Part shown: one piece after another, positions 27,319 through 63,794 of the stretch
How the letters are laid out: each line of letters begins with the position of its first letter
Numbering within the stretch: the first letter of the stretch is position 1
NCBI GenBank assembly: GCA_039584255.1
Contig: JBDGYE010000007.1
Coordinates: 5,815 to 69,814, forward strand
From: Gemmatimonadota bacterium
Lineage (GTDB): Bacteria > Gemmatimonadota > Gemmatimonadetes > Palauibacterales > Palauibacteraceae
Length of the DNA: 64,000 nt
Direction of reading: 5' to 3'
Position numbers and translations under genes: made by a program
The notes under the pieces: model-generated
Seen by the model: only the letters and a program-made list of their open reading frames with translations
Databases searched by the model: none
What the model was told of the DNA's origin: nothing

Positions 27319-27340
27319 GAAGTGGCGGATCCGCCACTTC
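27319..27340. promoter_or_regulatory. Perfect 22-bp palindrome upstream of the giant gene
   Basis: GAAGTGGCGGATCCGCCACTTC. It ends 33 nt before the ATG at 27374. Confidence 0.4.
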
Positions 27341-27373
27341 CGAAGACGTGAAACCTGCTGGCCGCGACGCGAG

Positions 27374-30300
27374 ATGGCAGACGAAGCAGGACTGAGACAG
27401 CTCAGCCTGGAAGGGGCTCAGGCTTCTGACGGGGTGGCCGAGCGCTTCCACATGAGAGCGCCTCGGCCCCTGGTCGGCAGCATCCTCTGGACACCCGTCT
27501 CGCCCGACGCACCCGCCGAGGTGGAGGGCGCGTACGATGTCTTCATCACGCAGAGGGCCCTGGGCGACCTGCTCGATCACCTCGCGACGGCTCCTTCCGG
27601 CGAACGGCCATTCGGTCTTCTGTCCGGGGACCTTTGTGAGGACCTCGATGTCGGAGCCCGCTACGTGATCATCAGCGGCGTTTGCCGCTCTTCCGTCCCC
27701 CTCTCGGACGATCCTGGCGATCAGATACTGCCGAAAGCCTGGGAGGCGCTTCGGCGCCTTGCGGCAGGGATGCAGGGTAACCTGGTCGGGTGGTACCTGC
27801 GCAGCACGAAAGGTCAGCTGGAGCTCTCCGGAGACGAGCTGCTCTCGCACGAGAAGTACTTCAGCGAGCCGTGGCACAGTGCCATCATCGTCTCGGCCGA
27901 CCGGGATGAGCCTGGAGGCGGATTCCTGCGGCGAACCTCGCGCGGGTTCTCACCATCCGAGGCGCTGCCCTTCTACGAGGTCGTGACGTCTCGGGCGCTC
28001 AGCAAGGGAGAAAAGCGGACCCTGCTCGACTGGAGGAACGTCCAGACCGCGGACTCGGTCGTCCCCGGTCAGCTCGCTCCCGAGACCAGCAAGCGCGTCA
28101 TGCGGGCGGCGGAGCGCTCACAGATCGGGAGCGGAGCGGAGGTCGCGGATGCGACCGCCGATGGTCCTACCGATGGGTCCGCGCTGAGTGTTCCCTCCGT
28201 GACAGGTGCGCCTGGCGTCTTCGCCGAGGAGGTCGCTAGACGCTCTATCCTGGCCGCTGCCGCGAAGACAGCGGCAGAGATGGCAGAGAGGCGCGAACGG
28301 GCCGAGGCGGCGGCACGCGAGGCGGAAGAAGAAGCGGCCCGGCGAGCCGAAGAGCTGCAAGCGGCCCGAACCGCAGCGGAGGAAGCGGCCCGCAAGGCAG
28401 CCGAAGAGGCGGCCGAGAGAGAAGAAGCCGAGGCCGCCGTCGAGCGACGCCAGGCGGAAGACCTCGCCCGGCAGGCGGAAGAGGCCGCTCGAGTCGCCGA
28501 CGAGGAAGCTGCGCGTAGAGCCGTGGCCCTGACCTCTGCCCAGGAGGCTGCCGATAACGCAGAGAGCAGGGCGAACGAGCTTGAAACCGCCCTGAGGGCG
28601 ACGGAAGCAGATGCGGCCCGGCGTGTGGCAGAGGAGAACGCGGCGCGTGTGGCGGCCGAACAGGAGGCCGCCCGTCGCGCGGAGGAGGTGGCACTGGCAA
28701 AGGCGGCCGAGGAGGAAGCGGAGAGGAGGGCCGCCGAGCTGGAGGCGACATTGAAGGCCGCCGAAGAGGCGAGGAAGGAGGCCGAAGAGGAGGCCATGCG
28801 GCGGGCCGCCCAAGCCGAGGCGGCACGGAGGGCGGCCGAGGAGGAGGCGGCGCGACAAGCGGCCGAGCTCGAAGCCACCCTCGAGGCAGCCGAAGCGGCA
28901 CGGAAGGAGGCCGAGGAGGAGGCGAATCGGAAGGCCGCGGAGGCTCAGGCGGCGCGGAAGGCGGCGGAAGAGGAAGCCGCCCAGCGAGCGGCTGAGCTGG
29001 AAGCCACCCTCGAGGCTGCCGAGGCCGCCAGGAAATCCGCCGAGGAGGAGGCTGCTCAGCGAGCCGCGGAAGCCCAGGCCGCCCGGAAGGCGGCGGAAGA
29101 AAAAGCTGCCCAGCGAGCGGCTGAGCTGGAAGCCACCCTGGAGGCGACCGATGCCGGTAGAAAGGCCGCCGAGGAGGAGGCAGCTCGGAGGGCCACCGAG
29201 CTCGAGGCCGCCCGGAAGGCCGCCGAGGCGGAAGCCGAGCGGCAAGCCGCGGAGCTGAAGGCCACCCTCGAGGCTGCCGACGCCGCTCGCCGGGCCGCCG
29301 AGAAGAAGGCCGAGCGGCAGGCCGCGGAGCTCGAGGCCGCTCGGAAGGCCGCCGAGGCGGAAGCCGAGCGGCAGGCCGCGGAGCTTCAGGCCACCCTGGA
29401 GGCTGCCGATGCCGCCCGCCGGGCCGCCGAGGAGAAGGCAACCCGCAGGTCCGAGGAGCTCGAGGCCGCCCGGAAGGCCGCCGAGGAGGAGGCCGAGCGG
29501 CAGGCCGCGGAGCTCCAGTCCACTCTCGAGGCAGCGGAGTCCGCTAGACGAGAGGCAGAGGCGGAGGCGGCCCGCCGGACCGAGGAGCTCGAGGCCGCCC
29601 GGAAGGCCGCCGAGGAGGAGGCCGAGCGGCGAGCCGCGGAGGCGGAAGCGGCGATCCAGGCGGTAGAACAGGAGGCCGCGCGACAGTCAGCGGAAGCCGA
29701 GGCCGCTCGCACCGCCGCCGAGGAGGAAGCCGCGCGCCGCCGCGAGGAGGCGGAAGCACACAAGGCCGCCAAGGAAGAAGCCGTTCGTCGAATGGCGGAG
29801 CTCGAGTCCGCTCGAAAGAAAGCCGAAGAAGAAGCGTTGCGGTGGGCCGCGGAAGCCGAGGCCGCCCGGAGCGCCGCCGAGGAGGAAACGGCCCGCATGG
29901 CGGCCGAGCTCGAGGAGACGCGAGAGGCGGCTGCCACAGCTCGGCAGGTGGCGGAACAGGAGGCCGCCCGGCGTTCCGCAGAGGTGGAAGCGGCCAAAAG
30001 GGTGGCGGAGGAATCCGAACGGCGGGCACGGGATGCGGAAACCGCTCGTCGATCCGCCGAGGCCGAGGCCGAGACACGCAGGTCGGAGGAAGCCGCCCGC
30101 AGAGCGGCCGAGGCAGCCGCTCTCGAGAAGGCGGCCGAGCTGGAGGCCGCCCGCGAAGCAGCCCAAGATGAGGCCGAACGGCGAGCTGCCGAGGCCGAAT
30201 CAGCGCGCAGGGAGGCCGAAGAGGAGGCCAAGCAGCGAAAAGCAGAGGCCGCCGCGCGAAAGGCCGCCGAGAAGGAGGCCGCGCGTAGAGCCGATGAGCT

Positions 30301-31864
30301 GACGGAGGCCCGAAAGCTAGTGGAAAAGGAGGCCACGCGGCGGACGGAGGAGGCGGAGGTCGCCCTGAAGGCGGCGAAGCGGGAGGCGGGACGGCGGAAG
30401 AAGGAGGAGGAAGCCCGCAAGGCTGCAGAGAAGGAGGCCGCCCGGAGGGCCTCGGAGCTCGAGAAGGCCAGAGCGGCAGCGGAGGAAGAGGCTGCCCGCA
30501 AGGCGGACGAGGCCGAGGCTGCCCTCGAGGCCGCGCGAATGGAGGCCGAGCGGCGTGAAGCCGCCGAGCGCGAAGCTGCGGACCGGAGCTCCGAACTGGA
30601 GGAAGCTCAGAAGGCGGCCGAGGAAGCCGTTCGGCAGGCAACCGAGAAGCGGGCTGCGCAGCAGGCGATCCAGCAGGAGGCCGACCGGCGGACGGCCGAG
30701 GAGGAAGCAACCCTCAACGCGGCCGAGCAGAAGGTCTCTCACAAGGCTGCCGAGCTGGAGGCTGCACGGGAGGCTGCTGAGGAAAAGGTCGCCCAGATGG
30801 CGGCGGAGGCGGAAGCGGCCAGGGAGTCGGCCCGCCTCGAGGCGGAGCGCCGCGAGCAGGCGGAGGCGGCGGCCGCGGCGAGGGTCGACGAGCTGGAGCG
30901 CGCCCGGCAGGCCGCCGAGCAGGAGGCCGCGCGCATGGCCGCGCGCGCCCAGAAGGTGGCGGAGGTGGCGCGCCAGGAGCTGACCCGTCTCAGAGTGGAG
31001 CGAAAGGCGCTGGAGGAGGGCGCGGCACGCAGGATCGCGGCGATCGATGCCGAGCGCCGTGCAGCCGAGCGAGAGGCTGTGCGGCGGAGGGACGAGGAGG
31101 TGACCCGCGAAGCGTCGTCTGACGCGGCCCGGCAGGCGGAGGAGGAGGCGGAGCGAAGGGCTGCCCGAGAAGCAGCCTTCCGCCGGGCGGAGGAAGCGGT
31201 CACGAGAAGGGCGGAGCAGGACTCCCTACGTCTGGCAGCCGAGGCCGCTGCGCCCAGGGATCAGGAGCGAGAGGCGGAACGGGATGCCGCCCCGGCAGCC
31301 GCAGAACAGCCACCGCACAGGAAGTGGAGAAAGAGGCTGAGCCAGGCCGGTAACATCGCGGCCAGCATCGGGATCATCTCGATCGCCGCTGTCGGCGCCG
31401 AGAGGATCGTAGGCTCATCCGACCCGCGCATCGAAGAGGCTGTGCAGACTCTTCCGCCGGCAGTCACCGGAGACGACGAGGCGATTCCGCAGGCGCCCGG
31501 GGCAATCGAGCTGCCACCCCTAGCGGGAATCCAGCAAGTGCCGGGCTCCGGAGAGCTGTCGGTCGTACCTCCGAGCACCGACCCAGACGTGAAGGCGCTG
31601 GACTCCTGGGCGGGTTCGCTCGCCAGCGTAATTCAGGCGTTCCAGGAGGCCGCGGCGAGGCATGGCGCCGGCACCACGGCCTGTTCCGACCTCCAGGCGG
31701 CGTTCATCCTCGTGGATGAGACCTGGCTCGACTACAACGTCGACGGGATCTCAAAGGTCGTTGAAGACCTCGACCCCGAGCGGATGGACCGTCACGAGAG
31801 CCTGTCCAAAGACGTCCGCCAGGTCGAGCTCTCGCTGACTGCGTCGGGCTGCGAGAGACCCTGA
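27374..31864 (+). CDS. Giant (about 1496 aa) protein: degenerate MPN/JAB-like domain + about 1000-aa Ala/Glu/Arg/Lys helical repeat + TM helix + C-terminal domain
   Basis: MPN-like pattern FITQRAL...ERPFGLLSG...YVIISGV...LVGWYLRSTKGQLELSGDELLSHEKYF...AIIVS, where the expected HxH reads LRS. Uninterrupted AEEEAARRAAELEA-type sequence from about 28250 to 31300. TM AGNIAASIGIISIAAVGA (about 31348-31405). Start chosen at MADEAG; the upstream part of track ORF 27026.. is lower-GC and non-protein-like. Confidence 0.75.
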   Translation: MADEAGLRQLSLEGAQASDGVAERFHMRAPRPLVGSILWTPVSPDAPAEVEGAYDVFITQRALGDLLDHLATAPSGERPFGLLSGDLCEDLDVGARYVIISGVCRSSVPLSDDPGDQILPKAWEALRRLAAGMQGNLVGWYLRSTKGQLELSGDELLSHEKYFSEPWHSAIIVSADRDEPGGGFLRRTSRGFSPSEALPFYEVVTSRALSKGEKRTLLDWRNVQTADSVVPGQLAPETSKRVMRAAERSQIGSGAEVADATADGPTDGSALSVPSVTGAPGVFAEEVARRSILAAAAKTAAEMAERRERAEAAAREAEEEAARRAEELQAARTAAEEAARKAAEEAAEREEAEAAVERRQAEDLARQAEEAARVADEEAARRAVALTSAQEAADNAESRANELETALRATEADAARRVAEENAARVAAEQEAARRAEEVALAKAAEEEAERRAAELEATLKAAEEARKEAEEEAMRRAAQAEAARRAAEEEAARQAAELEATLEAAEAARKEAEEEANRKAAEAQAARKAAEEEAAQRAAELEATLEAAEAARKSAEEEAAQRAAEAQAARKAAEEKAAQRAAELEATLEATDAGRKAAEEEAARRATELEAARKAAEAEAERQAAELKATLEAADAARRAAEKKAERQAAELEAARKAAEAEAERQAAELQATLEAADAARRAAEEKATRRSEELEAARKAAEEEAERQAAELQSTLEAAESARREAEAEAARRTEELEAARKAAEEEAERRAAEAEAAIQAVEQEAARQSAEAEAARTAAEEEAARRREEAEAHKAAKEEAVRRMAELESARKKAEEEALRWAAEAEAARSAAEEETARMAAELEETREAAATARQVAEQEAARRSAEVEAAKRVAEESERRARDAETARRSAEAEAETRRSEEAARRAAEAAALEKAAELEAAREAAQDEAERRAAEAESARREAEEEAKQRKAEAAARKAAEKEAARRADELTEARKLVEKEATRRTEEAEVALKAAKREAGRRKKEEEARKAAEKEAARRASELEKARAAAEEEAARKADEAEAALEAARMEAERREAAEREAADRSSELEEAQKAAEEAVRQATEKRAAQQAIQQEADRRTAEEEATLNAAEQKVSHKAAELEAAREAAEEKVAQMAAEAEAARESARLEAERREQAEAAAAARVDELERARQAAEQEAARMAARAQKVAEVARQELTRLRVERKALEEGAARRIAAIDAERRAAEREAVRRRDEEVTREASSDAARQAEEEAERRAAREAAFRRAEEAVTRRAEQDSLRLAAEAAAPRDQEREAERDAAPAAAEQPPHRKWRKRLSQAGNIAASIGIISIAAVGAERIVGSSDPRIEEAVQTLPPAVTGDDEAIPQAPGAIELPPLAGIQQVPGSGELSVVPPSTDPDVKALDSWAGSLASVIQAFQEAAARHGAGTTACSDLQAAFILVDETWLDYNVDGISKVVEDLDPERMDRHESLSKDVRQVELSLTASGCERP
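28730..29633 (+). repeat. Seven tandem 129-bp (43-codon) coding repeats inside the giant gene
   Basis: Unit starts at about 28730, 28859, 28988, 29117, 29246, 29375 and 29504 (AAELEATLEAAEAARKEAEEEA..RKAAEAQAARKAAEEEAAQR and derived 25+18-aa subunits). Confidence 0.85.
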
Positions 31865-36223: not shown

Positions 36224-37873
36224 TCATCCAGTCGAGCCGTCGTGCTCCGCAACCGGGGGCGATTGGATCATCTGCGGAATCGTCTCGGGAAGATGCGTCT
36301 GCCACCATTCCGCAGCGCGCTCCCTCGTCCAGGGCTCGTCCAGGCGGATTCCATCCAGAGCACGGGCGAGATCCTCGGCCGATCCCGGACGACTCGCAGG
36401 GTCCTTGGAGAGGCACGCCAGAACGAGGCCGTCGAGCTCGACCGGAATCGGCATCTCCGCGACGGCGCTGGGAGGCTCCGGGGGAGTGTTCACGTGTGCG
36501 ACGATCGTGGCGACAACAGTGTCCTCCTGGAAGACACAGCGCCCGCTGAGCAGCTTGTAAGCCACACACGCCAGGGCGTAGATGTCGGCCCGCCCGTCGA
36601 TCTCCTGCCCGCCCATGGCCATCTCGGGCGCCATATAGCTGGGCGTCCCCGCCAGCAAGCCCTGTTTCGTCACCGGAGGCTCACGTCGCGACTCGAGCGT
36701 CGATTGCCTGACCAGCCCAAAGTCGAGGACCTTCACGAAGTCGGGCTCGAAGGCGCGCTGGCACAGGTAGAGATTGGCCGGCTTCAGGTCTCGGTGAATG
36801 AGGCCCCGCCGGTGAGCCTCGCCGAGGGAAAGGCACGCCTGCCGCAGAATGTGCACGACGCGCTCGGCCGGGAGTGGGCCGAAGCGCTCGACAAGGGACT
36901 CCATATCGAGCCCGTCGAGGAGCTCCATCACATAGAAGAAGGCTCCGTCGTCGCTGACCCCGAAGTCGTACAGCTCGACCGTGTGCGGTGACTGAAGGGA
37001 GGCGGTGACCTGCGCTTCCCGCTCGAAGCGGGTCAGCGCCGTATCCACGCCGCCAGGCTCCATGTCCAGCACATCGGCTCGAATCAGCTTGATCGCCGCC
37101 GGGCGCGCGAGCATGTTGTGACTCGCCTTCCAAACCTCGCCCATTCCCCCCCGCCCGATGAGCTCCAGCAGATGGTAGCTGCCCATCTCCTGGGCCCGGA
37201 GAATGTCCTTGCCCAGCCCGTAGATGATCCGGGCTGCGATGTAGGACACGACGACGACGACCGCGTAGGGAACAACGAAAACCGAGACGAAGTGCCCCGT
37301 TGCCAGGGTCGGCGCGTCACCGAACCGGGCCAGTAGCGCGATCGTAATGGGTACCGCGGAGCCCGAGAGCGTGAGGGCGATCAGCGCGTTTCTGGGCCTG
37401 GCCGGCACGAGGACCGCGAAGAAGAGCATCCAGGTCGCGACTCCGGAGAAGCCCACCAGGTCCGACGTCAGGAACTCGACCCCTACACCACGAAAGGTGC
37501 CCCAGTACTCCGAGATCGGGATACAGAAACTGACGATCACCTGGTAGACGAGGCCGACCGTGATCACCGCCGGCGGGGACAGCCGGGAGCTCCGGACGAG
37601 GAAGAGGACCACGAGCGACGCCACGATCATCGCCACACCGGGGCCGAACTGAAGCGGATCCGCGAACTCTGCCGCGAGTTCGCCTTCGACCCAGTTGCCC
37701 CCGAGCCAGCCGAACGCGAGCAGAACGACGAGCACAACGCAGACTACCTGAAGGCGCTCCGAGGCCTGGCGCAGGAGGGAAGGAGGGAGTCCCGTGGTGG
37801 AGCGCCCGGGTGTCTGGGACGGAATCTGCCGCCCGTCACCCTTCGTCAACAGGAGGTCATCCCGGCCGCTCAT
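36224..37873 (-). CDS. Ser/Thr protein kinase with N-terminal polytopic membrane domain
   Basis: About 6 predicted TM helices in the first 220 aa, then IGRGGMGEVWKA, AIKLI, HRDLKPANLYL, DFG and APE motifs. Confidence 0.85.
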   Translation of the reverse strand: MSGRDDLLLTKGDGRQIPSQTPGRSTTGLPPSLLRQASERLQVVCVVLVVLLAFGWLGGNWVEGELAAEFADPLQFGPGVAMIVASLVVLFLVRSSRLSPPAVITVGLVYQVIVSFCIPISEYWGTFRGVGVEFLTSDLVGFSGVATWMLFFAVLVPARPRNALIALTLSGSAVPITIALLARFGDAPTLATGHFVSVFVVPYAVVVVVSYIAARIIYGLGKDILRAQEMGSYHLLELIGRGGMGEVWKASHNMLARPAAIKLIRADVLDMEPGGVDTALTRFEREAQVTASLQSPHTVELYDFGVSDDGAFFYVMELLDGLDMESLVERFGPLPAERVVHILRQACLSLGEAHRRGLIHRDLKPANLYLCQRAFEPDFVKVLDFGLVRQSTLESRREPPVTKQGLLAGTPSYMAPEMAMGGQEIDGRADIYALACVAYKLLSGRCVFQEDTVVATIVAHVNTPPEPPSAVAEMPIPVELDGLVLACLSKDPASRPGSAEDLARALDGIRLDEPWTRERAAEWWQTHLPETIPQMIQSPPVAEHDGSTG

Positions 37874-41911: not shown

Positions 41912-43318
41912 TCAGTGGTCCAGCGTCATGAAGAGGTTGTTGAGAGACTCGGCCAGAGTCGGATGGGCGATCACCGAGTCACGGAGCACGGAGTACGCCA
42001 GGTCTCCCAGCATCGCCATCTGAAGGACGGAAACGACTTCTCCCCCCTCAGTGCCCAGAATCGCCGCTCCCAGGATGCGCCCCGTGGAATTGTCTACGAC
42101 GGCCTTCATGAAGCCTCGGGTCTCGTTTACCTCGATAGCCCTCGCGACTCGAGACATGGGGAGCTTTGCAACTCGGATGTCTAGGCCCTTGTCCCGGGCC
42201 TCGCGTTCTGTGAGACCCACACGTCCAAGCTGCGGATCGGTGAACAGGGCGTAGGGAAGCAGTCGATCCGTCGTCGTCCGTCGTTTGCCTTCGAGCAGAT
42301 TCACCCGGATCACCCTGTAGTCGTCGTACGCGGTGTGCGTGAACGGCGGCGCCCCCGTTACGTCGCCCAGCGCCCAGATACCTTCCACCTTGGTCTCGCA
42401 GCGCTCGTTGACCGGTATCCATCCGCGCTCGTCCACCGCCAACCCGGTTGACTCGAGCCGGAGAAGATCAGCATTCGAGGTTCGGCCGGCGGACACGAGA
42501 AGGTGGCTGCCCGACAGCACGCTCTCCTTGTCCCCGGTCCGGACATGAAGATCGATGCCGCTCCCCGTCGACTGCACAGAGACAGCCTCGGTCTCGGTCC
42601 GTACCTTCACTCCCTCTTGCTCGAGGATTTCGCGCATCGCCTTGGTAACGTCAGCATCCTCGCGCGGTATGAGGCTCGGGCCCTTTTGGACGATCGTCAC
42701 CTCCGCCCCGAAACGGCAGAACATCTGGCCGAACTCCAGGCCGATGAAGCCGCCCCCGAGGACGAGCAGGTGATCCGGAACCTCCTCCAGCTCCATTATC
42801 GAGGTAGAAGTCAGGTATGCCACTGTGTCGAGCCCGGCGATCGCCGGGATGCGGGGTCTCCCGCCCACGTTGAGGAAGATGTGGTCGGATTTGAGGCGTC
42901 GCGTCCCGCCGTCCGTGAGCGCCACTTCCACCTCCCGGATACCTACAAACCACGCCTCGCCGAGGATGAGTTCGAGGTTCGCGTGGCGCTGCAGGCCCTT
43001 CTGGCTGCCCTCGCTCCATTCGTCGACGATGCGGCGCTTGCGTTGCCGCACGACTTCGAGGTCTACAGAGACCGAGCCGGTCCTCACGCCGTACTCCACG
43101 GCGCGGCGTGCCAGGTACGCGACTCTCGCGCTGGCCAACATCGTCTTGGTCGGGGTGCAACCGGCGACGACGCAGGTTCCTCCCACGCGTCCCTTTTCAA
43201 CGATGGCCGTACGCCAGCCGGCACGGGCGAGGTCGGCAGCGAGAGGCTTTCCGCCCTGACCCGTTCCGATAACGATCGCGTCCAGGCGCTCCGCTTGAGA
43301 CTGGGTGGATGCTTCCAA
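41912..43318 (-). CDS. Pyridine-nucleotide-disulfide oxidoreductase (mercuric-reductase / dihydrolipoamide-dehydrogenase-like, class I)
   Basis: DAIVIGTGQGG FAD motif. Redox-active GGTCVVAGCTPTK. Second Rossmann motif LLVLGGGFIGLE. C-terminal AHPTLAESL. No in-frame ATG at the N-terminus; TTG at 43318 lies 4 nt after AAAGGAGG. Confidence 0.8.
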   Translation of the reverse strand: MEASTQSQAERLDAIVIGTGQGGKPLAADLARAGWRTAIVEKGRVGGTCVVAGCTPTKTMLASARVAYLARRAVEYGVRTGSVSVDLEVVRQRKRRIVDEWSEGSQKGLQRHANLELILGEAWFVGIREVEVALTDGGTRRLKSDHIFLNVGGRPRIPAIAGLDTVAYLTSTSIMELEEVPDHLLVLGGGFIGLEFGQMFCRFGAEVTIVQKGPSLIPREDADVTKAMREILEQEGVKVRTETEAVSVQSTGSGIDLHVRTGDKESVLSGSHLLVSAGRTSNADLLRLESTGLAVDERGWIPVNERCETKVEGIWALGDVTGAPPFTHTAYDDYRVIRVNLLEGKRRTTTDRLLPYALFTDPQLGRVGLTEREARDKGLDIRVAKLPMSRVARAIEVNETRGFMKAVVDNSTGRILGAAILGTEGGEVVSVLQMAMLGDLAYSVLRDSVIAHPTLAESLNNLFMTLDH

Positions 43319-43398
43319 AGGGCCTCCTTTGACTCTTCGCAGGTTGACGTCATGGTCCGGTATGGCCCACCCGGGATCCGCTATCGGAACCCGGCAGC

Positions 43399-43860
43399 TC
43401 AAGTGTCCGCCGCTGCGGCGGCCTCGGCCATGGCCGCCAGCGCGCCGCTGATCTTCTCGAGTACGGCCATGCAGGCCTCCAGGTGGTGACGCTCGGCCAG
43501 GTGGGACGGCGGATCGTAGCCGATCCAGACCTTCCCGACCTTGTCCTCGAACACGAGGTACTTGAGCGGCAGATCGATTCCGACCGTCGCGTCGCACTTC
43601 ATCAACTGCGTGCCGATCGCCGGGTTGCCGAAGATCAGGAGCTCCATCGGCGGCACCTCCTCGCCGACCGCCCGGGCGCCGGCGGCATGGTCGATCCGAC
43701 TGAATCTCTGCAGGTTCCGCTCTTCGAGGATGGCCTCCAGGCGATCGACCGTCTGGCCTACGGTATGATTGCTCTCGACCGTTTGAAGCGCCGATGTGTG
43801 CTCCTGCGAACTCAGCGCGAGCGCCGTGAGCAGCAGTGACAGGTATAGCATTCCACCCAC
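43399..43860 (-). CDS. DUF302-domain protein with signal peptide
   Basis: Pattern ...RIDHAAGA...ELLIFGNPAIGTQLM...IDLPLKYLVFED. Confidence 0.7.
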   Translation of the reverse strand: MGGMLYLSLLLTALALSSQEHTSALQTVESNHTVGQTVDRLEAILEERNLQRFSRIDHAAGARAVGEEVPPMELLIFGNPAIGTQLMKCDATVGIDLPLKYLVFEDKVGKVWIGYDPPSHLAERHHLEACMAVLEKISGALAAMAEAAAAADT

Positions 43861-44271
43861 CTATGTGTTCGAGGTCGTCCCGATGGCTCCGCCAGCCGAT
43901 CATCTACTCCGGCGGGGAAAGAGCCACTTCGATTCGCGGTGTATCTCAGGGTGCCCCAAGAAGGACGAGCCGACACGATGCGTCAACCTTGGCGCGGTGT
44001 CGGTACCGCGCCCGCCGCCGGGGCGGCCCGAAGCGAAGCGCCGTACGTGGCACAGCCGCAGACTCGCTTTGTCACGGCGCGTCTCGACTCGTTGAGACTG
44101 GCGGTTCCCAGGTGCCCGAAAGCCACACCTTGACAGGGCTGGCTGCCGGCGCCGGCCGGGTTCCAGCGAGATTGGCACGAGGCGCAAGATAGGCCTATTC
44201 TCAACGCCGGCACCCTAGAGACACCCGGTTCTCAAACCGGAATCTGACAGGAATCGACAAATGGAGGTGAC

Positions 44272-49028: not shown

Positions 49029-51284
49029 TTAGGGGATCAGAGAGTCGGACGACGTCCCAAACCCGACGCTGTTCAACAAAGCCTCGAACCGCGGATCTCC
49101 GCGAAGGTTGTCCAGGAACGGATCCACGTTCAGGTAAATGAGGTCGCTCACGCCCTCATCACAGGCACGCTTCAGGCAGGAAAACGCCTTGTCTCTTTCT
49201 CCCAGGGACGCGTAGATGAGGGTGAAGGCATAAGGCGTGACGTACCGCTCCTTGGAGAGCTCCTTCAACTCCTCGACAACTTCGAGTACCTCGGCCCTCA
49301 TCCCGGCCAGGCCATACGCCCGTCCAAGCGCAGCCAGCTTCGCCCGATCTCCGGACAACTCCATGGCCTTCCGGGTCGCTTCGATGGCATCGGCGTGCAT
49401 CCCCTTCTGAGCGTAGGCCGAGCCCAGGGTCACATGAGCCCGAGTGAAGCCGGGGTCCATCTCGAGCACTCTCTCGTACTGGGCTATGGCCCGGTCGTAG
49501 TCTCGGGCCAGGTAGGAAAGCACGCCCAGATCCGTCATGGTTCCTAGCGAGACGGGGTCGAGATCGAGGGCCCGCTTGAGAGTAGCGATGGCTTCCTCCG
49601 ACCGCCCTCTCCCGGCAAAGAAGAACGCGTAGAACCGGTAGGCGGACGGGTTGTTGGGATTCAGCCCGATGGCTCGTTTGAACGCCCGTTCCGCCTCCTC
49701 CCAGGCAAACTCGTGCATCTTCAGGTGCCCTAATGAAGCGTGCGCCTCGCTCAACCCATCATCGAGCTCGAGTGCCTTCCGGACGGCCGCCCCTGCGGTG
49801 GAGAAGGCCTCCCTTGGCGAAATGGCAGAGTGCCCGGCATCTCCGAGACTGGCGTATGAATCGGCCAATCCGACGTAGGCGCGGGCGTAGGTCGGGTCCT
49901 CCTCGATCGCTGCCTGGAAGTGCTCGGTTGCCCTCCAGTAGGCCTCCGTGTTGCTCTTGTTCCAGTAGTACCGACCCTTCAAGTACAGGTGGTAGGCGTC
50001 GAGGTCATCCGTGCGCCGCTGGCTGAAAGCGACCCTGTCACCCTCGATCAGCTTGACCTTCAGCACGTCGACGATTGCCCGTGTGATCTCGTCTTGAACG
50101 GCAAAGACGTCGGCCATGTCGCGGTCATACTGTTCAGACCAGATGTGGTACCCGTCTTCGGCGTTGATCAATTCGGCAGTTATGCGTAGCCGATTGCCTG
50201 CCTTCTGCACGGAACCCTCGAGCACCGCGCCGACGTTCAACTCTCGTCCGATGACACGGGCGTCGGCGGGGCGGCCTTTGAAGGAGAAAGCCGAGGTGCG
50301 GGCGGCCACTCGGAAATCCTTGATGTGCGTCAAGGCGTTGATGAGGTCCTCGGAAAGGCCATCGCTGAAGTACTCGTTTTCAGGGTCAAGGCTGAGACTG
50401 GTGAACGGAAGCACAACGATCGACCTCGCTGGCGACGGTCCCTCTCCCCGAACCGGCATCCTCAGCGCGGCCGCAAACTCACTGGCAGCAGCGAACCGGT
50501 CGATATGCGTTTTGGCGAGAGCCTGGCGCACAGTCCGATCCACTGTGTCGGGAATCGACGAGCGCGCCGCCTTCAGCGAAGGAACCGGGTCCATGAGGTG
50601 ACGCGCCAGAATCTCCTGGCGATTCGAGCCCATGAAGGGTGGATGCCCTGCCAACATCTCGTACAACACACACCCGAGGCTATAGATGTCGCTGCGCCCA
50701 TCCAGACTACTGGTGCCGGTCGCCTGCTCGGGGCTCATGTAGGCTGGCGTGCCCACGGCGAGGCCTGTGACGGTGAGCCGGCCTGTGCCCGCCACCCCGA
50801 CCGCCCGCGCCACCCCGAAGTCGGCGATCATAGCGTGGCCGCGCGACAGCAGGATGTTCGCCGGCTTGATGTCCCTGTGCACCACGCCTTGCTCATGGGC
50901 GTAGTCGAGCCCATCGGCTACCTCGACCGCGATGCGCACGGACTCGTCTACTCCGAGCTGTTTCTCACGGCCCAAACACTCCCTGAGGGACTCCCCTTCT
51001 ACATAGGGCATGACGTAATAGAGCAGGCCGTCTGCCTCACCCGAGTCATGGAGCGGTAGGATGTGGGGGTGGTTGAGGCAGGCGACCGTTCGAATCTCCT
51101 TGAGGAAACGGTCAGGGCCCACCGTAGACGCGAGCTCAGGGCTCAGAACCTTGACCGCAACCTGGCGGCTGTGCTTGACGTCTTCGGCCAAGAAGACAGT
51201 TGCCATGCCGCCACGACCGATTTCCTGATCGACGGCGTACCTGTCCGCAAGGGCGGCTTGTAGGCGCTCCAGGAGGTGAGTCAT
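49029..51284 (-). CDS. Ser/Thr protein kinase with central domain and C-terminal TPR repeats
   Basis: IGRGGMATVFLA, VAVKVL, HRDIKPANILL, DFG and SPEQ motifs, then several TPR-like units. GGGAGGAG RBS before the ATG at 51284. Confidence 0.9.
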   Translation of the reverse strand: MTHLLERLQAALADRYAVDQEIGRGGMATVFLAEDVKHSRQVAVKVLSPELASTVGPDRFLKEIRTVACLNHPHILPLHDSGEADGLLYYVMPYVEGESLRECLGREKQLGVDESVRIAVEVADGLDYAHEQGVVHRDIKPANILLSRGHAMIADFGVARAVGVAGTGRLTVTGLAVGTPAYMSPEQATGTSSLDGRSDIYSLGCVLYEMLAGHPPFMGSNRQEILARHLMDPVPSLKAARSSIPDTVDRTVRQALAKTHIDRFAAASEFAAALRMPVRGEGPSPARSIVVLPFTSLSLDPENEYFSDGLSEDLINALTHIKDFRVAARTSAFSFKGRPADARVIGRELNVGAVLEGSVQKAGNRLRITAELINAEDGYHIWSEQYDRDMADVFAVQDEITRAIVDVLKVKLIEGDRVAFSQRRTDDLDAYHLYLKGRYYWNKSNTEAYWRATEHFQAAIEEDPTYARAYVGLADSYASLGDAGHSAISPREAFSTAGAAVRKALELDDGLSEAHASLGHLKMHEFAWEEAERAFKRAIGLNPNNPSAYRFYAFFFAGRGRSEEAIATLKRALDLDPVSLGTMTDLGVLSYLARDYDRAIAQYERVLEMDPGFTRAHVTLGSAYAQKGMHADAIEATRKAMELSGDRAKLAALGRAYGLAGMRAEVLEVVEELKELSKERYVTPYAFTLIYASLGERDKAFSCLKRACDEGVSDLIYLNVDPFLDNLRGDPRFEALLNSVGFGTSSDSLIP

Positions 51285-51406
51285 CGGCTCCTCCCGAGGA
51301 GCGAAGGGGGTGGGGCTGATCAATATAGGACGTCTAGGCTTAGGGCGCTCCTGAGGCGTGCGCCGGTGCGGGAACCTAGCAAGCCCGGGCACGTGTTGGA
51401 CAGCAC

Positions 51407-51874
51407 TCAGCCCGGAATGCGGCCTCGGCGTCGGAGCCACCACCTCAAGCAGCGATGACCGATGTCAACCGGCTCACAGTACATCAAGGGGCATCCGCCG
51501 ACGATGCACTGGATGTTACCCAGCTCGCACTCGCGAATGGCTGCGTCCGAGACACTGCCTGAACCGAACGAACGGTGAAACCACACCCGCTCGACGCCAC
51601 AATCGGCAGACTGGCGCACCAACTCAACCGAAGTATTGGGGTGCGTTGCGACGACCACCCCGTGGATGGACCCAGGGATGGCGTCCAGGCTGGGGTAAGC
51701 CTTGGCTCCCTCGACTTCAGAAGCGTTTGGGTTGACGGGAAACGTCTCGTACCCAGCATCTCGCAGCTTCCGGTAAACGGCGTTGGCGGCCTGGCTAGCG
51801 TTACGCGATACACCCGCGACAGCGATTCGGTTTCCGCTCAGGAACTCGGCGACAGGCTTTGGCAGGTCGTTCAT
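51407..51874 (-). CDS. CoA-binding-domain protein
   Basis: IAVAGVSRNASQAANAVYRKLRDAGYETFPVNP pattern (CoA_binding_2-like). Start at MNDLPK (51874). Confidence 0.7.
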   Translation of the reverse strand: MNDLPKPVAEFLSGNRIAVAGVSRNASQAANAVYRKLRDAGYETFPVNPNASEVEGAKAYPSLDAIPGSIHGVVVATHPNTSVELVRQSADCGVERVWFHRSFGSGSVSDAAIRECELGNIQCIVGGCPLMYCEPVDIGHRCLRWWLRRRGRIPG

Positions 51875-52574: not shown

Positions 52575-52616
52575 ACCCCCCGCCGTGCGAGCGAAAGCGC
52601 CCGACGTGAAACGGGG
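52575..52616. repeat. Post-ORF hairpin repeat family copy
   Basis: CCCCCGCCGTGCGAGCGAAAGCGCCCGACGTGAAACGGGG. Confidence 0.6.
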
Positions 52617-52709
52617 TGCTGGTGAACCGAACTCTTGAGCCGCTTTGCGCCCTCTTAAACCACCGCCCGGTCTACAAACGCTCCATCGCCGGCCTCGAAT
52701 CTGGCCGGG

Positions 52710-52862
52710 CTAATGCATTGCGTGATCGCAGCCAAACAAGAAATGACAGATCGGTATGACGTCGTGGAAGAGGCAGGAGGCCAGGAAGAACAGGATGATA
52801 AGGGCCAGCCCGGCGATTATCAGGCGATGATGTCGTTCCATGGTCGCGGACATGGCTGTCAT
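52710..52862 (-). CDS. Small Cys/His-tailed membrane protein (50 aa, below the track cutoff)
   Basis: My own translation: MTAMSATMERHHRLIIAGLALIILFFLASCLFHDVIPICHFLFGCDHAMH. GAGGTGG RBS 5 nt upstream. Lies 78 nt downstream of the CMD gene. Confidence 0.35.
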   Translation of the reverse strand: MTAMSATMERHHRLIIAGLALIILFFLASCLFHDVIPICHFLFGCDHAMH

Positions 52863-52940
52863 GATTACCACCTCGTCGTAAGAAGAGTGCTTGTTGCATC
52901 AGGCGTCTCGAAAGAATGCGCACGGCATTCGGGCCTAACC

Positions 52941-53342
52941 TCACCCATGCCATGGCTTTTCGTCCGGCTCCACCTGCAGGCCATCCAGGAGCTTGTTGAA
53001 TCCTGCGAACAGGTCGACGACGGACATCAGCTCGACGATACCTTCGTCGTCCAATCCCAACTTCCGCACCGCGGAAGTATGCACCTCAATTCAGTAGCGA
53101 CACCCGGACACGGCCGAAACGGCGACTGCGATGATCTCCCTGGTCAGGCGGTCGAGCTGGCCCGGCGCTGTCATGACCGCCTTCACCTTGTTCCAGTTCG
53201 CCTCGAGAAAACCGGGCCTCGGGGCCATGGCCCGGTACATGTTCGGGACGAAGTCGATTCCCAGAGTGTCTTTGATGTCCTCGTAGATTTCCTTGACCTG
53301 ACCAGTAGCGTCTTCTTCGGCAATCATCTCGATCGAGGCCAT
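52941..53342 (-). CDS. Carboxymuconolactone-decarboxylase/AhpD-like protein with in-frame TGA at the second active-site Cys (candidate selenoprotein, 133 aa if read through)
   Basis: Track ORF 53091..53435 ends ...AVSAVSGCRY-TGA. The same frame continues IEVHTSAVRKLGLDDEGIVELMSVVDLFAGFNKLLDGLQVEPDEKPWHG to the TGA at 52941-52943, reconstituting the family motif C-x-x-[C/U]-x-x-x-H. Start is the ATG at 53342 with a GGAGAGAG upstream. Confidence 0.6.
53060..53078 (-). promoter_or_regulatory. SECIS-like hairpin 12 nt downstream of the in-frame UGA
   Basis: mRNA sense ACUUCCGC-GGU-GCGGAAGU, a perfect 8-bp stem with the GGU apical loop 21-23 nt after the UGA. Confidence 0.5.
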
Positions 53343-53409
53343 CTTCTCTCTCCGGCCAGAACTTGCGGTTTCATCAACCTGGGTTGGTCCCGATCGCGCT
53401 ACGGTGAGG

Positions 53410-54060
53410 TCAACGTGTGCGCGCCGCAGGCGCACGGGCCTGCGCCTCTGCTCGGCTCTTGATGCCGAGAAGGCACTTCCGCATCATGATGAGTTCGAGA
53501 GCATCGACCAACAGCATCTGCACGATGGATGGCCGCGTCCATTTGTAGCGGACTCGCAGACGGCTCACCAAGCGTGTGTGCCCAGTGTCTACCTCGTACA
53601 GGCCCCACGCCCACGTAGCATTCGACCACTGACCCTCCACCCGGAAGACCCACAACATCGACTCTTCCCGGTTCATCTCCAGCACTTCGACATAGGAATC
53701 GGGCGCAACCGGAATCATGTCCCCGATCTTCAGGTCTTGATACTCGGGGATGATGCGCTCCGCGCTCGGGATTCCGCCGTTGTCGAGCCGATCGTAGCTG
53801 TAGAAGCCAGCTCGCTTGTAGCCCATCTGCAGAAGCCAGGGCCAGATGTCCTCCGGACGCGCTGCGACGGTGACTGCCCTTGTACCGTTGAACGACGGGC
53901 GTGCATTGAGCTCGTCCCCGAGCATTGTGCGACTGACCTCCTCGTCCGTTGCGCCCCATGTCAAATGCCAAGGACGGATCACGAGGAGGTACGCGACGAT
54001 CAATACAGCGAAGACAGCAACTGCGCCGAGCAGCAGCGTCTTGAGTTTTCTGCGCTTCAT
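53410..54060 (-). CDS. SRPBCC-superfamily (polyketide-cyclase/START-like) protein with N-terminal TM anchor
   Basis: MKRRKLKTLLLGAVAVFAVLIVAYLL anchor. RPEDIWPWLLQMG...GFYSYD pattern typical of SRPBCC family members. Confidence 0.6.
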   Translation of the reverse strand: MKRRKLKTLLLGAVAVFAVLIVAYLLVIRPWHLTWGATDEEVSRTMLGDELNARPSFNGTRAVTVAARPEDIWPWLLQMGYKRAGFYSYDRLDNGGIPSAERIIPEYQDLKIGDMIPVAPDSYVEVLEMNREESMLWVFRVEGQWSNATWAWGLYEVDTGHTRLVSRLRVRYKWTRPSIVQMLLVDALELIMMRKCLLGIKSRAEAQARAPAARTR

Positions 54061-54118
54061 CGCTGACCTCATTCACGAGGCCAAAGTCAGCAGAGCATGA
54101 CGGCCAATCCGCCGACGG

Positions 54119-54814
54119 TCAGTCGCTGTGCTCGAGGCGCCTCTCGCGGCGGTCGCGTGGCCGCTGGGTCGCGGACGTGGGCTCGATCCCGCTGATCCGG
54201 TTCTGGCGAGCGGAATTGCCGAACGGTTGCGCCACTAGCTCGATCGTCTCTGGGGGCAGGTTGGGCCGGCCGGCCGCGGCGGGACTCTCCGCCCTCGGCA
54301 GCGGGTTGCTCAGGGATTCTCCTTTGATCTTCTCCTGTATCATCATGATTCCGTAGATCAGGTTCTCCGGGCGTGGAGGGCAGCCCGGCACGTACACGTC
54401 CACCGGGATGATGGCGTCTACGCCCTGGACTATAGTGTAGTTGTCGAACATTCCGCCCGAGCTGGCGCAGGCGCCCATCGCGATCGCCCACTTGGGCTGC
54501 GGCATCTGGTCCCAGATGCGTCGTAACACCGGTGCCAGTTTGTAGGTGACTCGCCCACCTACGATCATGAGATCCGCGTGCCGTGGACTGTATTGCAGCC
54601 ACTCCATGCCGAAGCGGCCGATATCGAACCTCGCCGCGGAGGCAGCCATGCACTCGTTCACGCAGCACGCCGTGTAGAAGGGCATGACCCAGAGGGAGTT
54701 GCGGCGGGACCAGTTGACGACGCGGTCCAGCCTGCTAATCAGCCAGGGATAAGAGTCTATACGCCTCAGCGCGGCGTCGGATTCCAACTCGCCCGGGGCA
54801 GGGACGGTAAGCAT
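54119..54814 (-). CDS. Orphan NuoB-family (NADH-quinone oxidoreductase subunit B / hydrogenase small-subunit-like) protein with Arg-rich tail
   Basis: [26 protein letters not shown] and VPGCPPRPE supply all four N2-cluster Cys. No nuoA, nuoC or nuoD neighbours. About 70-aa disordered C-terminal extension. Confidence 0.75.
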
Positions 54815-54817
54815 TCC

Positions 54818-54913
54818 CTAGAACCGCGCGCCCACACTCGCCACGAACTGCTCACCACTCTCGACCTCGATCTTTCCCTCGACGAACGGCTTTGCGATAC
54901 CGTGGCCGAACAT
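54818..54913 (-). CDS. Possible 31-codon micro-ORF immediately upstream of the NuoB-like gene
   Basis: MFGHGIAKPFVEGKIEVESGEQFVASVGARF. GGAGGA lies 8 nt before the ATG. The stop is 3 nt before the nuoB-like ATG. Confidence 0.25.
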   Translation of the reverse strand: MFGHGIAKPFVEGKIEVESGEQFVASVGARF

Positions 54914-55246
54914 CAGCCCTTCCTCCGCTTTACGTCTTCCCTGCGCCTTCGGGACCCGGACCAGTGGCGCCTGCTGAACGTGGTAACTCCAACACCGCGG
55001 CACAAGTTAGGCTGAGCTGCAATCGGGATGGGACAGCGCGCAGAAAGCGCAACTGCTCTCGCCCGACAGTGGCCGCTCACTCCTCCTCTCAAGCCCGCGA
55101 AAACCGGAAACGTACGTAACTCAGGAAAGCCTCGGCTGAAGGCTAGGGTTGTCGGGGGAGCCTCCAGGACAGTATAGAACCGTTGCCCGGGTAGGATGAA
55201 GTGGGCGGGCTTATCTGCCGGAGAGAGCTCCAGCGCGGTTGGGCTT

Positions 55247-55337
55247 GTCACCCCTTTGTCACCGACCGTTCTCAACCTGTTGAGACGACCACGTCCCAGA
55301 TGCACGAAAGCCCCGTCGCAAGAATCTACGGGAGCTT
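55247..55337. repeat. att-flank repeat, copy 1 (GGTGACA doublet + inverted repeat + hairpin)
   Basis: TGTCACCCCTTTGTCACC...TCTCAACCTGTTGAGA...CCCAGATGCACGAAAGCCCC. About 80% identical to 61021-61106. Confidence 0.7.
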
Positions 55338-55581
55338 CCAAGGGGAAGTCGGTCTGCGTGTTCTCGGAGAGGTCCCTCGGGTTGCCCCTGATCGTCCAGC
55401 TGTGCCGCTGGTTAGGTGGGTGTTTGTTCTGCTGGTGCTTCCGACCCTGGGCCAGGCGGACCAGGAAGGGCGGGACGCGGCGCTGCCGATTCACACAGCG
55501 GGAGCTTTGACTGCGGCTCCGGAACAGGTAACCTGGAGGCACCGGATTGCAGCGTGCAACGCACCGGCGCAGCAACGGCCC

Positions 55582-56493: not shown

Positions 56494-57024
56494 CTACGGT
56501 GCGTTCGTTCTCAGATCCCAGCTTCCGACGACCTCTCCCTGCTTCCTGCCATCGGCGCCGTAGGCAGTGTACGTCCACTCGGCGCGGCCAAAGGCCAGGG
56601 AGAGTGCCTCCATCGGGTGTTGGCTGCCGTGGGCTGCCGAGACCGAGTTAGCGCTCACGAGCACATCTGTGAGCTCAAGGCGGTAGAACTCCCGGCCTTC
56701 TGAGACAACACGGAGAGTCGCCTGCGCGAATCGCTTGCCCGTGGCGCAAGCCTGCAGCAGCACGGGGCTTGCCTTATCGACAGGCTTGAGGATGCTCAGG
56801 TCCGAGAAATCTGCCCTGCCCGCAGTCCTCGCACTGAGATCGGCCGCGTTGGCCGCTCCCCACTCGAAGGATTCGACGACAATGCACCCCCTGCAGTCCC
56901 TTTCCATGGACTCCCCTTCGACGCCCTCGATCTGGAGGAATACCTCAGCCTGCGCCTGGGCCGCATCGGGCAGCGTCAGGAGACCCATCGCGACAGAAAG
57001 CGCCAGTACGAGCATCCTTCTCAT
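56494..57024 (-). CDS. Hcp-family (type VI secretion tube protein-like) protein carrying a Sec signal peptide
   Basis: VFLQIEGVEGES...VESFEWGAAN...FSDLSILKPVDKASPVLLQACATGKRF..ATLRV...LELTDVLVSA...EALSLAFGRAEWTY matches Hcp1 throughout. N-terminus MRRMLVLALSVAMGLLTLPDAAQA. AAGGAGAGG RBS before the ATG at 57024. Confidence 0.8.
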   Translation of the reverse strand: MRRMLVLALSVAMGLLTLPDAAQAQAEVFLQIEGVEGESMERDCRGCIVVESFEWGAANAADLSARTAGRADFSDLSILKPVDKASPVLLQACATGKRFAQATLRVVSEGREFYRLELTDVLVSANSVSAAHGSQHPMEALSLAFGRAEWTYTAYGADGRKQGEVVGSWDLRTNAP

Positions 57025-57533
57025 AGGACCTCTCCTTTCCAAAGAGGCACAGTGCTGCCGGACTGCCGACGCGCGCCTGCTGCTGTGTCCTCCTATCTGG
57101 CCCGTTTCGCGATCACCGGGAGGTAAGCACAGCGTCACGCAGTCGCAGACAGCCCAGCAAGGGGACGGCGAGCCTTCCCAGATTCAGGTGTGAGGGGGAG
57201 CACGACCACCTTGAAGCTACCGACCCGCTCGCCGGCTTGCTAGCAAGCAAAGGCGCCCAGCGTGCAAAGGGGCGGCCCTCGATCGAACCGCCCTTTATCG
57301 GTGTCAACCAGCCTTGGCCACTGCTCTGGAAGCTGATCGGTGAGGGGAGAAATGTGAACATGGGCTTCCATCCACCGCCCGTCGCGTCTTTTGACCGAGG
57401 CGACTACGCCGCCATCCAGGCCCGTAAGCTCTGACTCCATCGCCGCGACCACTTGACTTCGCCGTGACAGACCTCTGCCGGTCAGGAACATGGAGAGTGG
57501 TGCGATTCGAACGCGACGAGACGGCGACGGTCC

Positions 57534-63193: not shown

Positions 63194-63236
63194 TCCCCGC
63201 CGCCGGCGAGCAAGCAAGAGCGCCCGGCGTGACTCA
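63194..63236. repeat. Post-ORF hairpin repeat family copy
   Basis: CCCCGCCGCCGGCGAGCAAGCAAGAGCGCCCGGCGTGAC, abutting the stop of the ICMT-like gene. Confidence 0.6.
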
Positions 63237-63794
63237 GAACAGGAAAGGAATGAACATCTTCGTGCGCCGCATGTACGCGCGGTAGTCGGGGCCGAAATAC
63301 CGGAGATTCTCAGTCTCCTCGACCCTGGCCGTCGCCACCAGGAAGGCCGTCGCGCCCAGCGCCAGGCAAATCCCGGCCCAGGATGGATTCTTAAAGAACA
63401 CACCCCATCCGAGAAGGAGCAGCGAGCTGTAGAGGGGATGTCTGATGTACCTGAAGGCACCCGTCGTCACCAGCCGGGTTGTCTTCTCGATCCCGAGCAG
63501 GTGTCCTTCCGCACGTCCATCCGCCTCCGGTTTGCCCTGAGTGCGCAGCAGATGTACCCCAGGAACCGCCGGGACCAGCGAGGCCACAAGCAAGAACCAC
63601 GAGACGAGCTGACGAAGGGAGAACGGGTCGTGGAACCACTGCTCGAAGTTCTCGAAGTTGAGCAGGAAGAGGACGAGGATGCATTCCCACGCGAAGAACC
63701 GGTAGAAGCCATGAGAACGCGCGTCCTTCAGGGAGGCCCTGGAGACGTACGCGAATCCGGCGGACAGGGCGATGAAGACTACGAGTCTGGGCAT
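63234..63794 (-). CDS. Isoprenylcysteine carboxyl methyltransferase (ICMT/PEMT-like) family membrane protein
   Basis: LVTTGAFRYIRHPLYSSLLLLGWG...EETENLRYFGPDYRAYMRRTKMFIPF is the C-terminal family signature. Confidence 0.75.
   Translation of the reverse strand: MPRLVVFIALSAGFAYVSRASLKDARSHGFYRFFAWECILVLFLLNFENFEQWFHDPFSLRQLVSWFLLVASLVPAVPGVHLLRTQGKPEADGRAEGHLLGIEKTTRLVTTGAFRYIRHPLYSSLLLLGWGVFFKNPSWAGICLALGATAFLVATARVEETENLRYFGPDYRAYMRRTKMFIPFLF

Follow-up and report, generated by a model that had tools for sequence, protein, structure and literature searches.

Selenocysteine (Sec) has been known in AhpD-type redox proteins since 2005, when the Sargasso Sea yielded AhpD-like (COG2128) and carboxymuconolactone decarboxylase (CMD)-domain proteins with a CxxU motif (Zhang, Fomenko & Gladyshev, PMC1088965); the Global Ocean Sampling (GOS) data of 2008 gave 299 sequences of 'AhpD-like 1' and 70 of 'AhpD-like 2, pfam02627' (Zhang & Gladyshev, PMC2398784). 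Both BSepDB and a review of 2026 now list AhpD-like/CMD-like CxxU families; the review table gives each such family one Sec, cites TIGR01926 as the model for 'AhpD-like protein, CxxU', and the bacterial selenocysteine insertion sequence (SECIS) is said to reside in coding regions (PMC13188914). Also listed in this review are the 'star' families of Haft, in which Sec is close to the C-terminus; a SECIS located past the stop codon is thus not without bacterial precedent (PMC13188914). Here we describe an AhpD-like gene on the minus strand of a 64,000-nucleotide stretch of the genome of a Gemmatimonadota bacterium (hereafter the window; assembly GCA_039584255.1, contig JBDGYE010000007.1, positions 5,815 to 69,814 of the forward strand). 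The gene is genuine and codes for a small redox protein of the AhpD type, and two of its apparent stop codons most likely encode Sec. At its core the finding is a further member of an already known selenoprotein family; the second Sec, at the penultimate position, may make it a new variant of the AhpD-like selenoproteins.

An initial annotation of the window, made from the sequence without database searches, had proposed an AhpD/CMD-family selenoprotein gene in whose CxxC motif UGA occupies the position of the second Cys, and had counted AhpD-like proteins among the families with Sec-containing members, which the 2005 report bears out (PMC1088965). As it described, the open reading frame (ORF) ends ...AVSAVSGCRY at a TGA (53093-53091, minus strand) and the joined motif reads C-R-Y-[UGA]-I-E-V-H, from C81 to H88. 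The translation from ATG 53342 opens MASIEMIAEEDATGQ; GTG 53435, the start in the ORF list, is merely the first start codon past the preceding stop and not the true start. The continuation of 49 codons in the same frame (IEVHTSAVRKLGLDDEGIVELMSVVDLFAGFNKLLDGLQVEPDEKPWHG) is also there, whereas the TGA at 52943-52941, which the initial annotation took for the next stop, does not appear to be the true one, since GGT TAG and a second conserved hairpin follow it. We redefine the gene as running from 53342 to 52935 (minus) with two Sec codons and two SECIS hairpins, the whole feature reaching 52914 (Table 1). If the genome encodes the Sec machinery, the product would probably be a protein of 135 residues with the pattern C81-x-x-U84 ... 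G-U134-G.

The first UGA (UGA-1) splits the CMD domain exactly, PF02627 profile positions 4-40 being matched before it and 43-81 after it; once joined, the protein scored 62.9 bits against this model (cutoff 23). In an alignment the UGA-1 column coincided with the second Cys of the CxxCxxxH motif in PDB entry 2OUW (SCSYCAHSH) and in Cys homologs, and all of the more distant homologs had Cys at this position. A protein search identified 1793 homologs, the closest being 70-76% identical and 133-136 residues long; these closest matches were of two types, with either Cys (C-x-Y-C-x-x-V-H) or 'W' in the UGA-1 column, the latter ending ...KPWYGWG. For the codons themselves we fetched the DNA of 80 loci from species-representative genomes and 80 from metagenomes (Cys-type query), of which 157, and with the window itself 158, could be scored; they span at least 10 phyla. 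The nearest relatives among them were the Gemmatimonadota metagenome-assembled genomes (MAGs) JBDGXI01 and JBDGWG01 with 96% amino-acid identity, and other loci belonged to Zixibacteria, Chloroflexota, Actinomycetota, Desulfobacterota, Acidobacteriota, Nitrospirota, Nitrospinota, Planctomycetota, KSB1, Krumholzibacteria and Gammaproteobacteria. The codons at the first and second UGA sites (sites 1 and 2) were TGA/TGA in 149 loci, TGC/TGA in four, TGC/TGC in four and TGA/TGT in one; 150 loci thus had TGA at site 1 and eight had TGC, i.e., Cys or TGA across many phyla, in agreement with the initial annotation. The forms with a Cys codon are L043, L055, L074 and L078-L083. As TGG occurred at neither site in any of the 158 loci, the 'W' of the databases is TGA translated as Trp, which presumably arises where gene callers pick a TGA=Trp model on short contigs. 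Protein collections have Trp at both Sec codons (CDYWLAVH ... YGWG) in P0003, P0005-P0007, P0009-P0013 and other entries, and one homolog, P0012, has W at site 1 and ends at site 2, so that pipelines treat the two TGAs differently.

Among 139 distinct TGA/TGA genes, the mean entropy at codon positions 1/2/3 was 0.60/0.52/1.43 upstream of UGA-1 and 0.41/0.19/1.21 between the two UGAs, the 49 codons past UGA-1 thus having the codon-position signature of translation. The stretch after UGA-1 is under protein-level purifying selection, and hence translated, and very probably UGA-1 encodes Sec at position 84 (U84).

The hairpin that the initial annotation had noted behind UGA-1 (SECIS-1) is in place, with a perfect 8-bp stem formed by the arms ACTTCCGC (53078-53071) and GCGGAAGT (53067-53060) around a GGT loop (53070-53068). 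The stem begins 12 nt past UGA-1, and 20 nt separate this codon from the loop, which lies 21-23 nt downstream; the hairpin overlaps codons 89-95, and a weak outer helix can lengthen it to about 53087-53051. Its minimum free energy (MFE) of -14.4 kcal/mol (z = -2.8) was better than that of 200/200 dinucleotide shuffles. SECIS-1 was conserved with compensatory changes among 76 genome sequences, and none of 500 shuffles matched its covariation score. For instance, pair 21-29 (the inner stem being alignment columns 17-23 and 27-33, seven pairs around the GGU loop) had 49 sequences with C-G, 18 with U-A and five with U-G, and in the U-A form Arg gives way to Gln in the protein; changes on both sides also occurred at pairs 19-31 and 17-33, with four such pairs in total. 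Wherever site 1 was TGA (150 loci), the inner stem kept at least six of its seven pairs, as against two to seven in the eight Cys forms. Synonymous sites inside the hairpin are frozen: third-position entropy was 0.53 within codons 89-95 vs. 1.3 beyond them, and 0.0 at Val92 and Arg93, which lie in SECIS-1, vs. 1.72 at Val87 and Gly96. The hairpin is thus no product of chance, and the SECIS-like geometry claimed by the initial annotation fits published constraints (given below).

The second UGA (UGA-2, predicted to encode U134) was recognized at the C-terminus, where the window reads ...KPWHG TGA GGT TAG. Some Cys-type homologs end ...KPWYGCG and the Trp-annotated ones ...KPWYGWG, and this comparison suggested a second recoded UGA. 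Site 2 was TGA in 153 of the 158 loci and TGC or TGT in five. The codon directly after UGA-2 was GGN in 132 of 140 distinct sequences (GGC 45, GGT 40, GGA 25, GGG 22), and a stop codon stood directly behind this single Gly in 116 of the 140, where roughly 5% would be expected by chance. The entropy of this one codon at positions 1/2/3 was 0.06/0.29/1.94 in the 139 TGA/TGA genes. Selection at the protein level on a Gly codon behind UGA-2 argues strongly that this UGA is decoded rather than terminating.

Past the true TAG stop lies a second hairpin (SECIS-2), GAATGC-CGTGC-GCATTC in the window, with 6 bp, an MFE of -9.2 kcal/mol and 16 nt from UGA-2 to the loop. All eight pairs tested were changed on both sides among the homologs (0/500 shuffles reached the observed values), and 83% of cells were paired, vs. 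21-47% when the partners were slid. The loop was CGUG[A/C/U] in 98 of the 140 sequences, and the spacing from UGA to loop was 16-21 nt in 123 of them. The published bacterial SECIS (bSECIS) consensus, due to Zhang & Gladyshev, has a loop of 3-9 nt with G in its first two positions, a stem of 4-16 bp, a spacing of 16-37 nt and an MFE of -7.5 kcal/mol or lower (PMC13188914), and both window hairpins fall within it. Rfam searches, of the whole window at the gathering threshold and of 52850-53150 at E-values up to 10, identified no model matching either hairpin; a cow-rumen-1 match was on the opposite strand and was dismissed as chance. When the region 52900-53365 was compared with the closest relatives (L001-L005 and L107), the nucleotide similarity of 88-91% covered the gene and hairpin 2 only, ended exactly at 52914 for many matches and did not extend to the flanks, which were not syntenic. 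From these matches, the gene with its 3' hairpin seems to behave as a self-contained unit set in differing contexts.

Table 1. Features of the AhpD-like selenoprotein locus and other genes referred to in the text. Positions are those of the window, except in the last row, where they follow the name of the related locus.
Feature	Position	Strand	Remarks
Predicted selenoprotein gene, AhpD/CMD fold	52935..53342	minus	135 codons plus stop, two in-frame UGA
Possible ribosome-binding site, GGAGAG	53348..53353	minus	5 nt upstream of the ATG; read from the sequence
Start codon, ATG	53342-53340	minus	agrees with homolog N-termini (MASIKMI...)
UGA-1, predicted U84	53091..53093	minus	in C81-R-Y-U84-I-E-V-H88
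SECIS-1 core hairpin	53060..53078	minus	in coding region; 8-bp stem ACUUCCGC/GCGGAAGU, loop GGU
UGA-2, predicted penultimate U134	52941..52943	minus	in ...P-W-H-G-U134-G135-stop
Gly135 codon, GGT	52940-52938	minus	directly after UGA-2
True stop, TAG	52937-52935	minus	directly after the Gly135 codon
SECIS-2 hairpin	52914..52930	minus	3' untranslated; stem GAAUGC/GCAUUC, loop CGUGC
ORF without family match	53410-54072		
NuoB-like gene (Oxidored_q6)	54119-54814	minus	NADH:ubiquinone oxidoreductase 20-kDa subunit
ORF without family match	54913-55575		
AhpC/TSA peroxiredoxin gene	10446-11024	minus	42 kb from the AhpD-like gene
Pyridine-nucleotide disulfide oxidoreductase gene	41912-43903	minus	9 kb from the AhpD-like gene
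PEMT-type membrane methyltransferase gene	63234-63794	minus	72% DNA identity to a gene at L137 1138-1720 and L143 1106-1688
Ser/Thr protein kinase genes	15175-16770, 36224-37873, 49029-51443	minus	one with TPR repeats
Type VI secretion Hcp gene	56494-57138	minus	
1612-residue ORF	27026-31864	plus	putative coiled-coil protein
Arsenic genes near the AhpD-like gene in related loci	L001 838-1669, L002 3092-3923, L022 11561-12488, L108 1390-1888, L153 1818-2964, others		

Several observations weigh against the decoding of both UGAs as Sec. No tRNA-Sec, selA, selB or selD was found in the window by ARAGORN, Rfam and Pfam/NCBIfam searches (the last on about 45 ORFs), and ARAGORN found no tRNA-Sec in 60 related loci (L001-L060). 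The genes of the Sec machinery are usually located elsewhere in the genome, so their absence from the window is not surprising; that this organism can decode Sec we infer from the gene alone. An element like hairpin 2 is still present in each of the five loci that have Cys at site 2 (L055 and L078-L081). Three of these, L078-L080, have UGA at neither Sec position and have lost hairpin 1 (two to four of seven pairs) while keeping GAATGCCGTGAGCATTC downstream, and L081-L083, which have Cys at site 1, retain a perfect hairpin 1, the hairpins thus not being strictly tied to UGA. Hairpins in the Cys forms may be relics of a recent Sec-to-Cys conversion, or may have a second role. In addition, SECIS-2 of the window is on its own thermodynamically ordinary (z = +0.34), its support being comparative, and a structure model with a mean confidence (predicted local distance difference test, pLDDT) of only 55.5 is too poor to place the C-terminal tail near the active site. 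In L055 and L080 the true stop is itself a TGA that falls within the 5' arm of the hairpin-2-like element.

The initial annotation had offered a recent TGC-to-TGA nonsense mutation in an ordinary CxxC AhpD gene, with the hairpin being incidental, as its alternative. While Cys-form homologs exist and the window has no Sec machinery, such a pseudogene would not be expected to show TGA at the same codon in 150 loci from at least 10 phyla, a covarying hairpin with frozen synonymous sites, or purifying selection on 49 downstream codons; selection on this stretch and on the Gly codon behind UGA-2 excludes a pseudogene, and we give the idea a negligible probability. Reassignment of TGA to Trp or Gly (genetic code 4 or 25) would account for the W that public collections show at both positions. 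However, the aligned residue in homologs is Cys and never Trp, TGG was absent from both sites, and TGA is the ordinary stop of 21 of the 42 heuristically called window genes, which speaks against any genome-wide reassignment; the host phyla, moreover, use the standard genetic code, and this explanation too is extremely improbable. A scan of the window for other TGA-interrupted genes gave 53 candidates and was noisy at 66% GC; the two junctions that joined real genes, at 10401 (plus) and 37888 (minus), turned out to be ordinary adjacent genes. Nor is it at all likely that faulty sequencing or assembly produced either or both of the TGA codons of the window, as both recur in MAGs and metagenome contigs that many studies assembled independently, the 96%-identical relatives among them.

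The main surviving rival is a protein with a single Sec, in which only UGA-1 is decoded, the TGA at 52943-52941 is the real stop of a 133-residue product, and hairpin 2 serves mRNA stability, termination or regulation. It gains from the retention of the hairpin-2-like element in the site-2 Cys loci, three of them without any UGA at the two sites, from the unremarkable folding energy of the window hairpin, and from the single Sec that the review table assigns to AhpD-like, CMD-like and related families (PMC13188914). Yet a codon behind a genuine stop should be free to vary, which is at odds with the near-constant GGN and the in-frame stop straight after it; TGC or TGT in place of UGA-2 in five loci and database homologs ending ...YGCG point to a coding position, and the CGUG loop and the 16-21 nt spacing from UGA are kept across phyla. 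Hairpin 2 does not resemble a terminator: a scan of 52600-53600 identified no Rho-independent terminator, and the stem lacks a T-run, 121 of 127 homologs having at most three T in the 8 nt behind it. In our judgment the retention of the hairpin counts for less than the constraint on Gly and stop and the replacement of UGA-2 by Cys codons, and a single-Sec protein is unlikely. Decoding of both UGAs as Sec, given Sec machinery in the genome, is well favored by the comparative data.

With respect to family, the protein scored above the cutoff of the generic AhpD core domain model TIGR00778 (53.8 bits, cutoff 27.8) and fell just short of TIGR01926 'peroxidase-related enzyme' (78.1 vs. 81.8), for which only profile positions 3-92 of 178, in its N-terminal half, were matched. 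It is a shorter relative of TIGR01926 and is a better fit to the 'CMD-like / AhpD-like 2' group defined by PF02627. Selenoprotein-specific NCBIfam models all scored far under their cutoffs: NF041238 (29.5 bits, cutoff 175), NF041047 (21.8, cutoff 110), NF053654 (21.5, cutoff 310) and NF041537 (24.1, cutoff 510). The closest solved structure was 2OUW, an AhpD-core protein of 138 residues with CxxCxxxH, to which residues 8-128 aligned with an E-value of 6.7e-25, and the AlphaFold2 model of the Cys/Cys homolog P0008, from which the low mean pLDDT above was obtained, was all-helical with six helices. The M. tuberculosis AhpD is a protein of 177 residues that has AhpC and lipoamide as partners. Both it and 2OUW share the CxxCxxxH signature and, presumably, the all-helical CMD domain with the window protein, but have Cys where the latter has its predicted Sec, and the aligned part of 2OUW does not include the C-terminal G-U-G tail. 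The window gene has no adjacent AhpC gene; AhpC/TSA comes no closer than 42 kb and the disulfide oxidoreductase gene is not adjacent either, so there is no operon of the AhpC-AhpD type in the window. The true start of the oxidoreductase ORF is probably later than called, its N-terminal extension being implausibly long.

Relative to the catalogued AhpD-like/CMD-like CxxU selenoproteins, the window family belongs to the same fold family (PF02627), with a predicted Sec at the second Cys, a SECIS right after the UGA and widespread Cys homologs, but where those are catalogued with one Sec, it adds a predicted penultimate Sec and a SECIS in the 3' untranslated region (UTR). With the 'star' families, several of which are double or triple selenoproteins, it shares a Sec within a few residues of the C-terminus and a SECIS beyond the stop; however, no NCBIfam 'star' model was matched at E-values up to 0.01, and the window protein is a stand-alone protein of 135 residues rather than a fusion. 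Both hairpins resemble the fdhF-type SECIS of E. coli in having a small apical loop with G then G/U, an upper stem of 6-8 bp, a spacing of 16-20 nt and an MFE below -7.5 kcal/mol, and differ from it in primary sequence and, for SECIS-2, in being non-coding. The penultimate Sec is absent from the 2026 review table (PMC13188914) and from the NCBIfam models examined. Our literature search found no description of the double-Sec C-x-x-U ... G-U-G form, although Haft & Tolstoy 2025 and BSepDB, which lay outside that search, may hold one, and it found nothing specific on selenoproteins of Gemmatimonadota.

The gene neighborhoods of the related loci offered a possible functional lead. An arsenic gene lay within 3 kb in 33 of the 157 related loci: the arsenite methyltransferase ArsM in 20 (NF008823, 350 bits vs. 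a cutoff of 263), the efflux protein ACR3 in nine (TIGR00832, 463 bits vs. 283) and an ArsC-like low-molecular-weight (LMW) phosphatase in ten. In the two closest relatives, L001 and L002, ArsM is 227 bp downstream on the same strand. The ArsM neighbors have a parallel in NF041537, a curated model for a selenoprotein in which ArsM is fused to an AhpD domain, and these arsenic genes may point to a function under metalloid or redox stress. Other frequent neighbors were an extracytoplasmic function (ECF) sigma factor and a second CMD protein with DUF1059 (27 loci each). The window copy has no arsenic gene, ECF sigma factor or CMD+DUF1059 gene next to it, and a conserved operon was not apparent, as a neighbor family was common to 27 of 161 loci at most and the window shared none of these families. 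Upstream of the window gene are a 220-residue protein without an assigned function and then the NuoB-like gene, which lies beyond this ORF and has no other recognizable nuo genes near it; downstream are three small ORFs and a Ser/Thr kinase gene. The gene that resembles the PEMT-type one in L137 and L143 is about 1 kb from the AhpD-like gene there, and the PEMT-type gene of the window is 10 kb from it. Elsewhere in the window, the ORF of 1612 residues consists mostly of Ala/Glu/Arg-rich repeats (...AAEEEAARRAAELEA...), had no Pfam match at E-values up to 1e-5 and was not picked by our gene-calling heuristic, which is based on GC content at third codon positions (GC3).

By analogy with known Sec insertion, each UGA would have a bacterial SECIS hairpin to itself, 16-20 nt downstream, the elongation factor SelB, loaded with Sec-tRNA(Sec) as well as GTP, binding each hairpin loop and delivering Sec as the UGA enters the ribosomal A site. 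The protein is most likely, judging by its domain and motif, an AhpD-type thiol/selenol oxidoreductase. Its C-terminal tail is probably flexible, and the selenol of U134 would probably exchange a selenenylsulfide or diselenide with the C81/U84 center, an action that we liken to that of the GCUG tail of mammalian thioredoxin reductase. The latter enzyme has a C-terminal Gly-Cys-Sec-Gly redox center, and Arner and colleagues reportedly produced it recombinantly in E. coli, using a bacterial SECIS behind the stop codon. The likeness would extend to a penultimate Sec followed by Gly and the stop, to a bacterial-type SECIS past the stop in the recombinant version and to a presumably mobile selenol; against this, thioredoxin reductase is a flavoprotein and not a small helical AhpD, its tail is GCUG rather than a G-U-G without an adjacent Cys, and the SECIS behind the stop was engineered there and is natural in the window gene. 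We speculate, tentatively and with the balance of our own opinion against it, that the locus represents a widespread, uncatalogued double-Sec AhpD form (C-x-x-U ... G-U-G-COOH) in which the tail Sec shuttles electrons to or from the C/U site and one SECIS lies wholly in the 3' UTR, that hairpin 2, being kept in Cys-only relatives, might have an additional role independent of Sec, and that, in lineages where ArsM and ACR3 are its neighbors, the protein may take part in the redox chemistry of arsenic or metalloids.

For the most part the core finding is an annotation correction, as standard gene callers would give a fragment of 83 or 114 residues in the window, or a 133-residue protein for the forms with Cys at site 1. 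What is added is the second, penultimate Sec, predicted across at least 10 phyla. If confirmed, it would improve the annotation of selenoproteins that public collections now show with Trp or as truncated proteins, would provide a compact natural system (135 residues and two short hairpins) for the use of a non-coding SECIS by SelB, and would open a two-selenol redox relay to study in a tiny protein. The recurrent ArsM/ACR3 neighborhood is a testable lead to its function and, were the tail-shuttle reading true, these proteins would be a natural bacterial counterpart of the C-terminal redox center of thioredoxin reductase.

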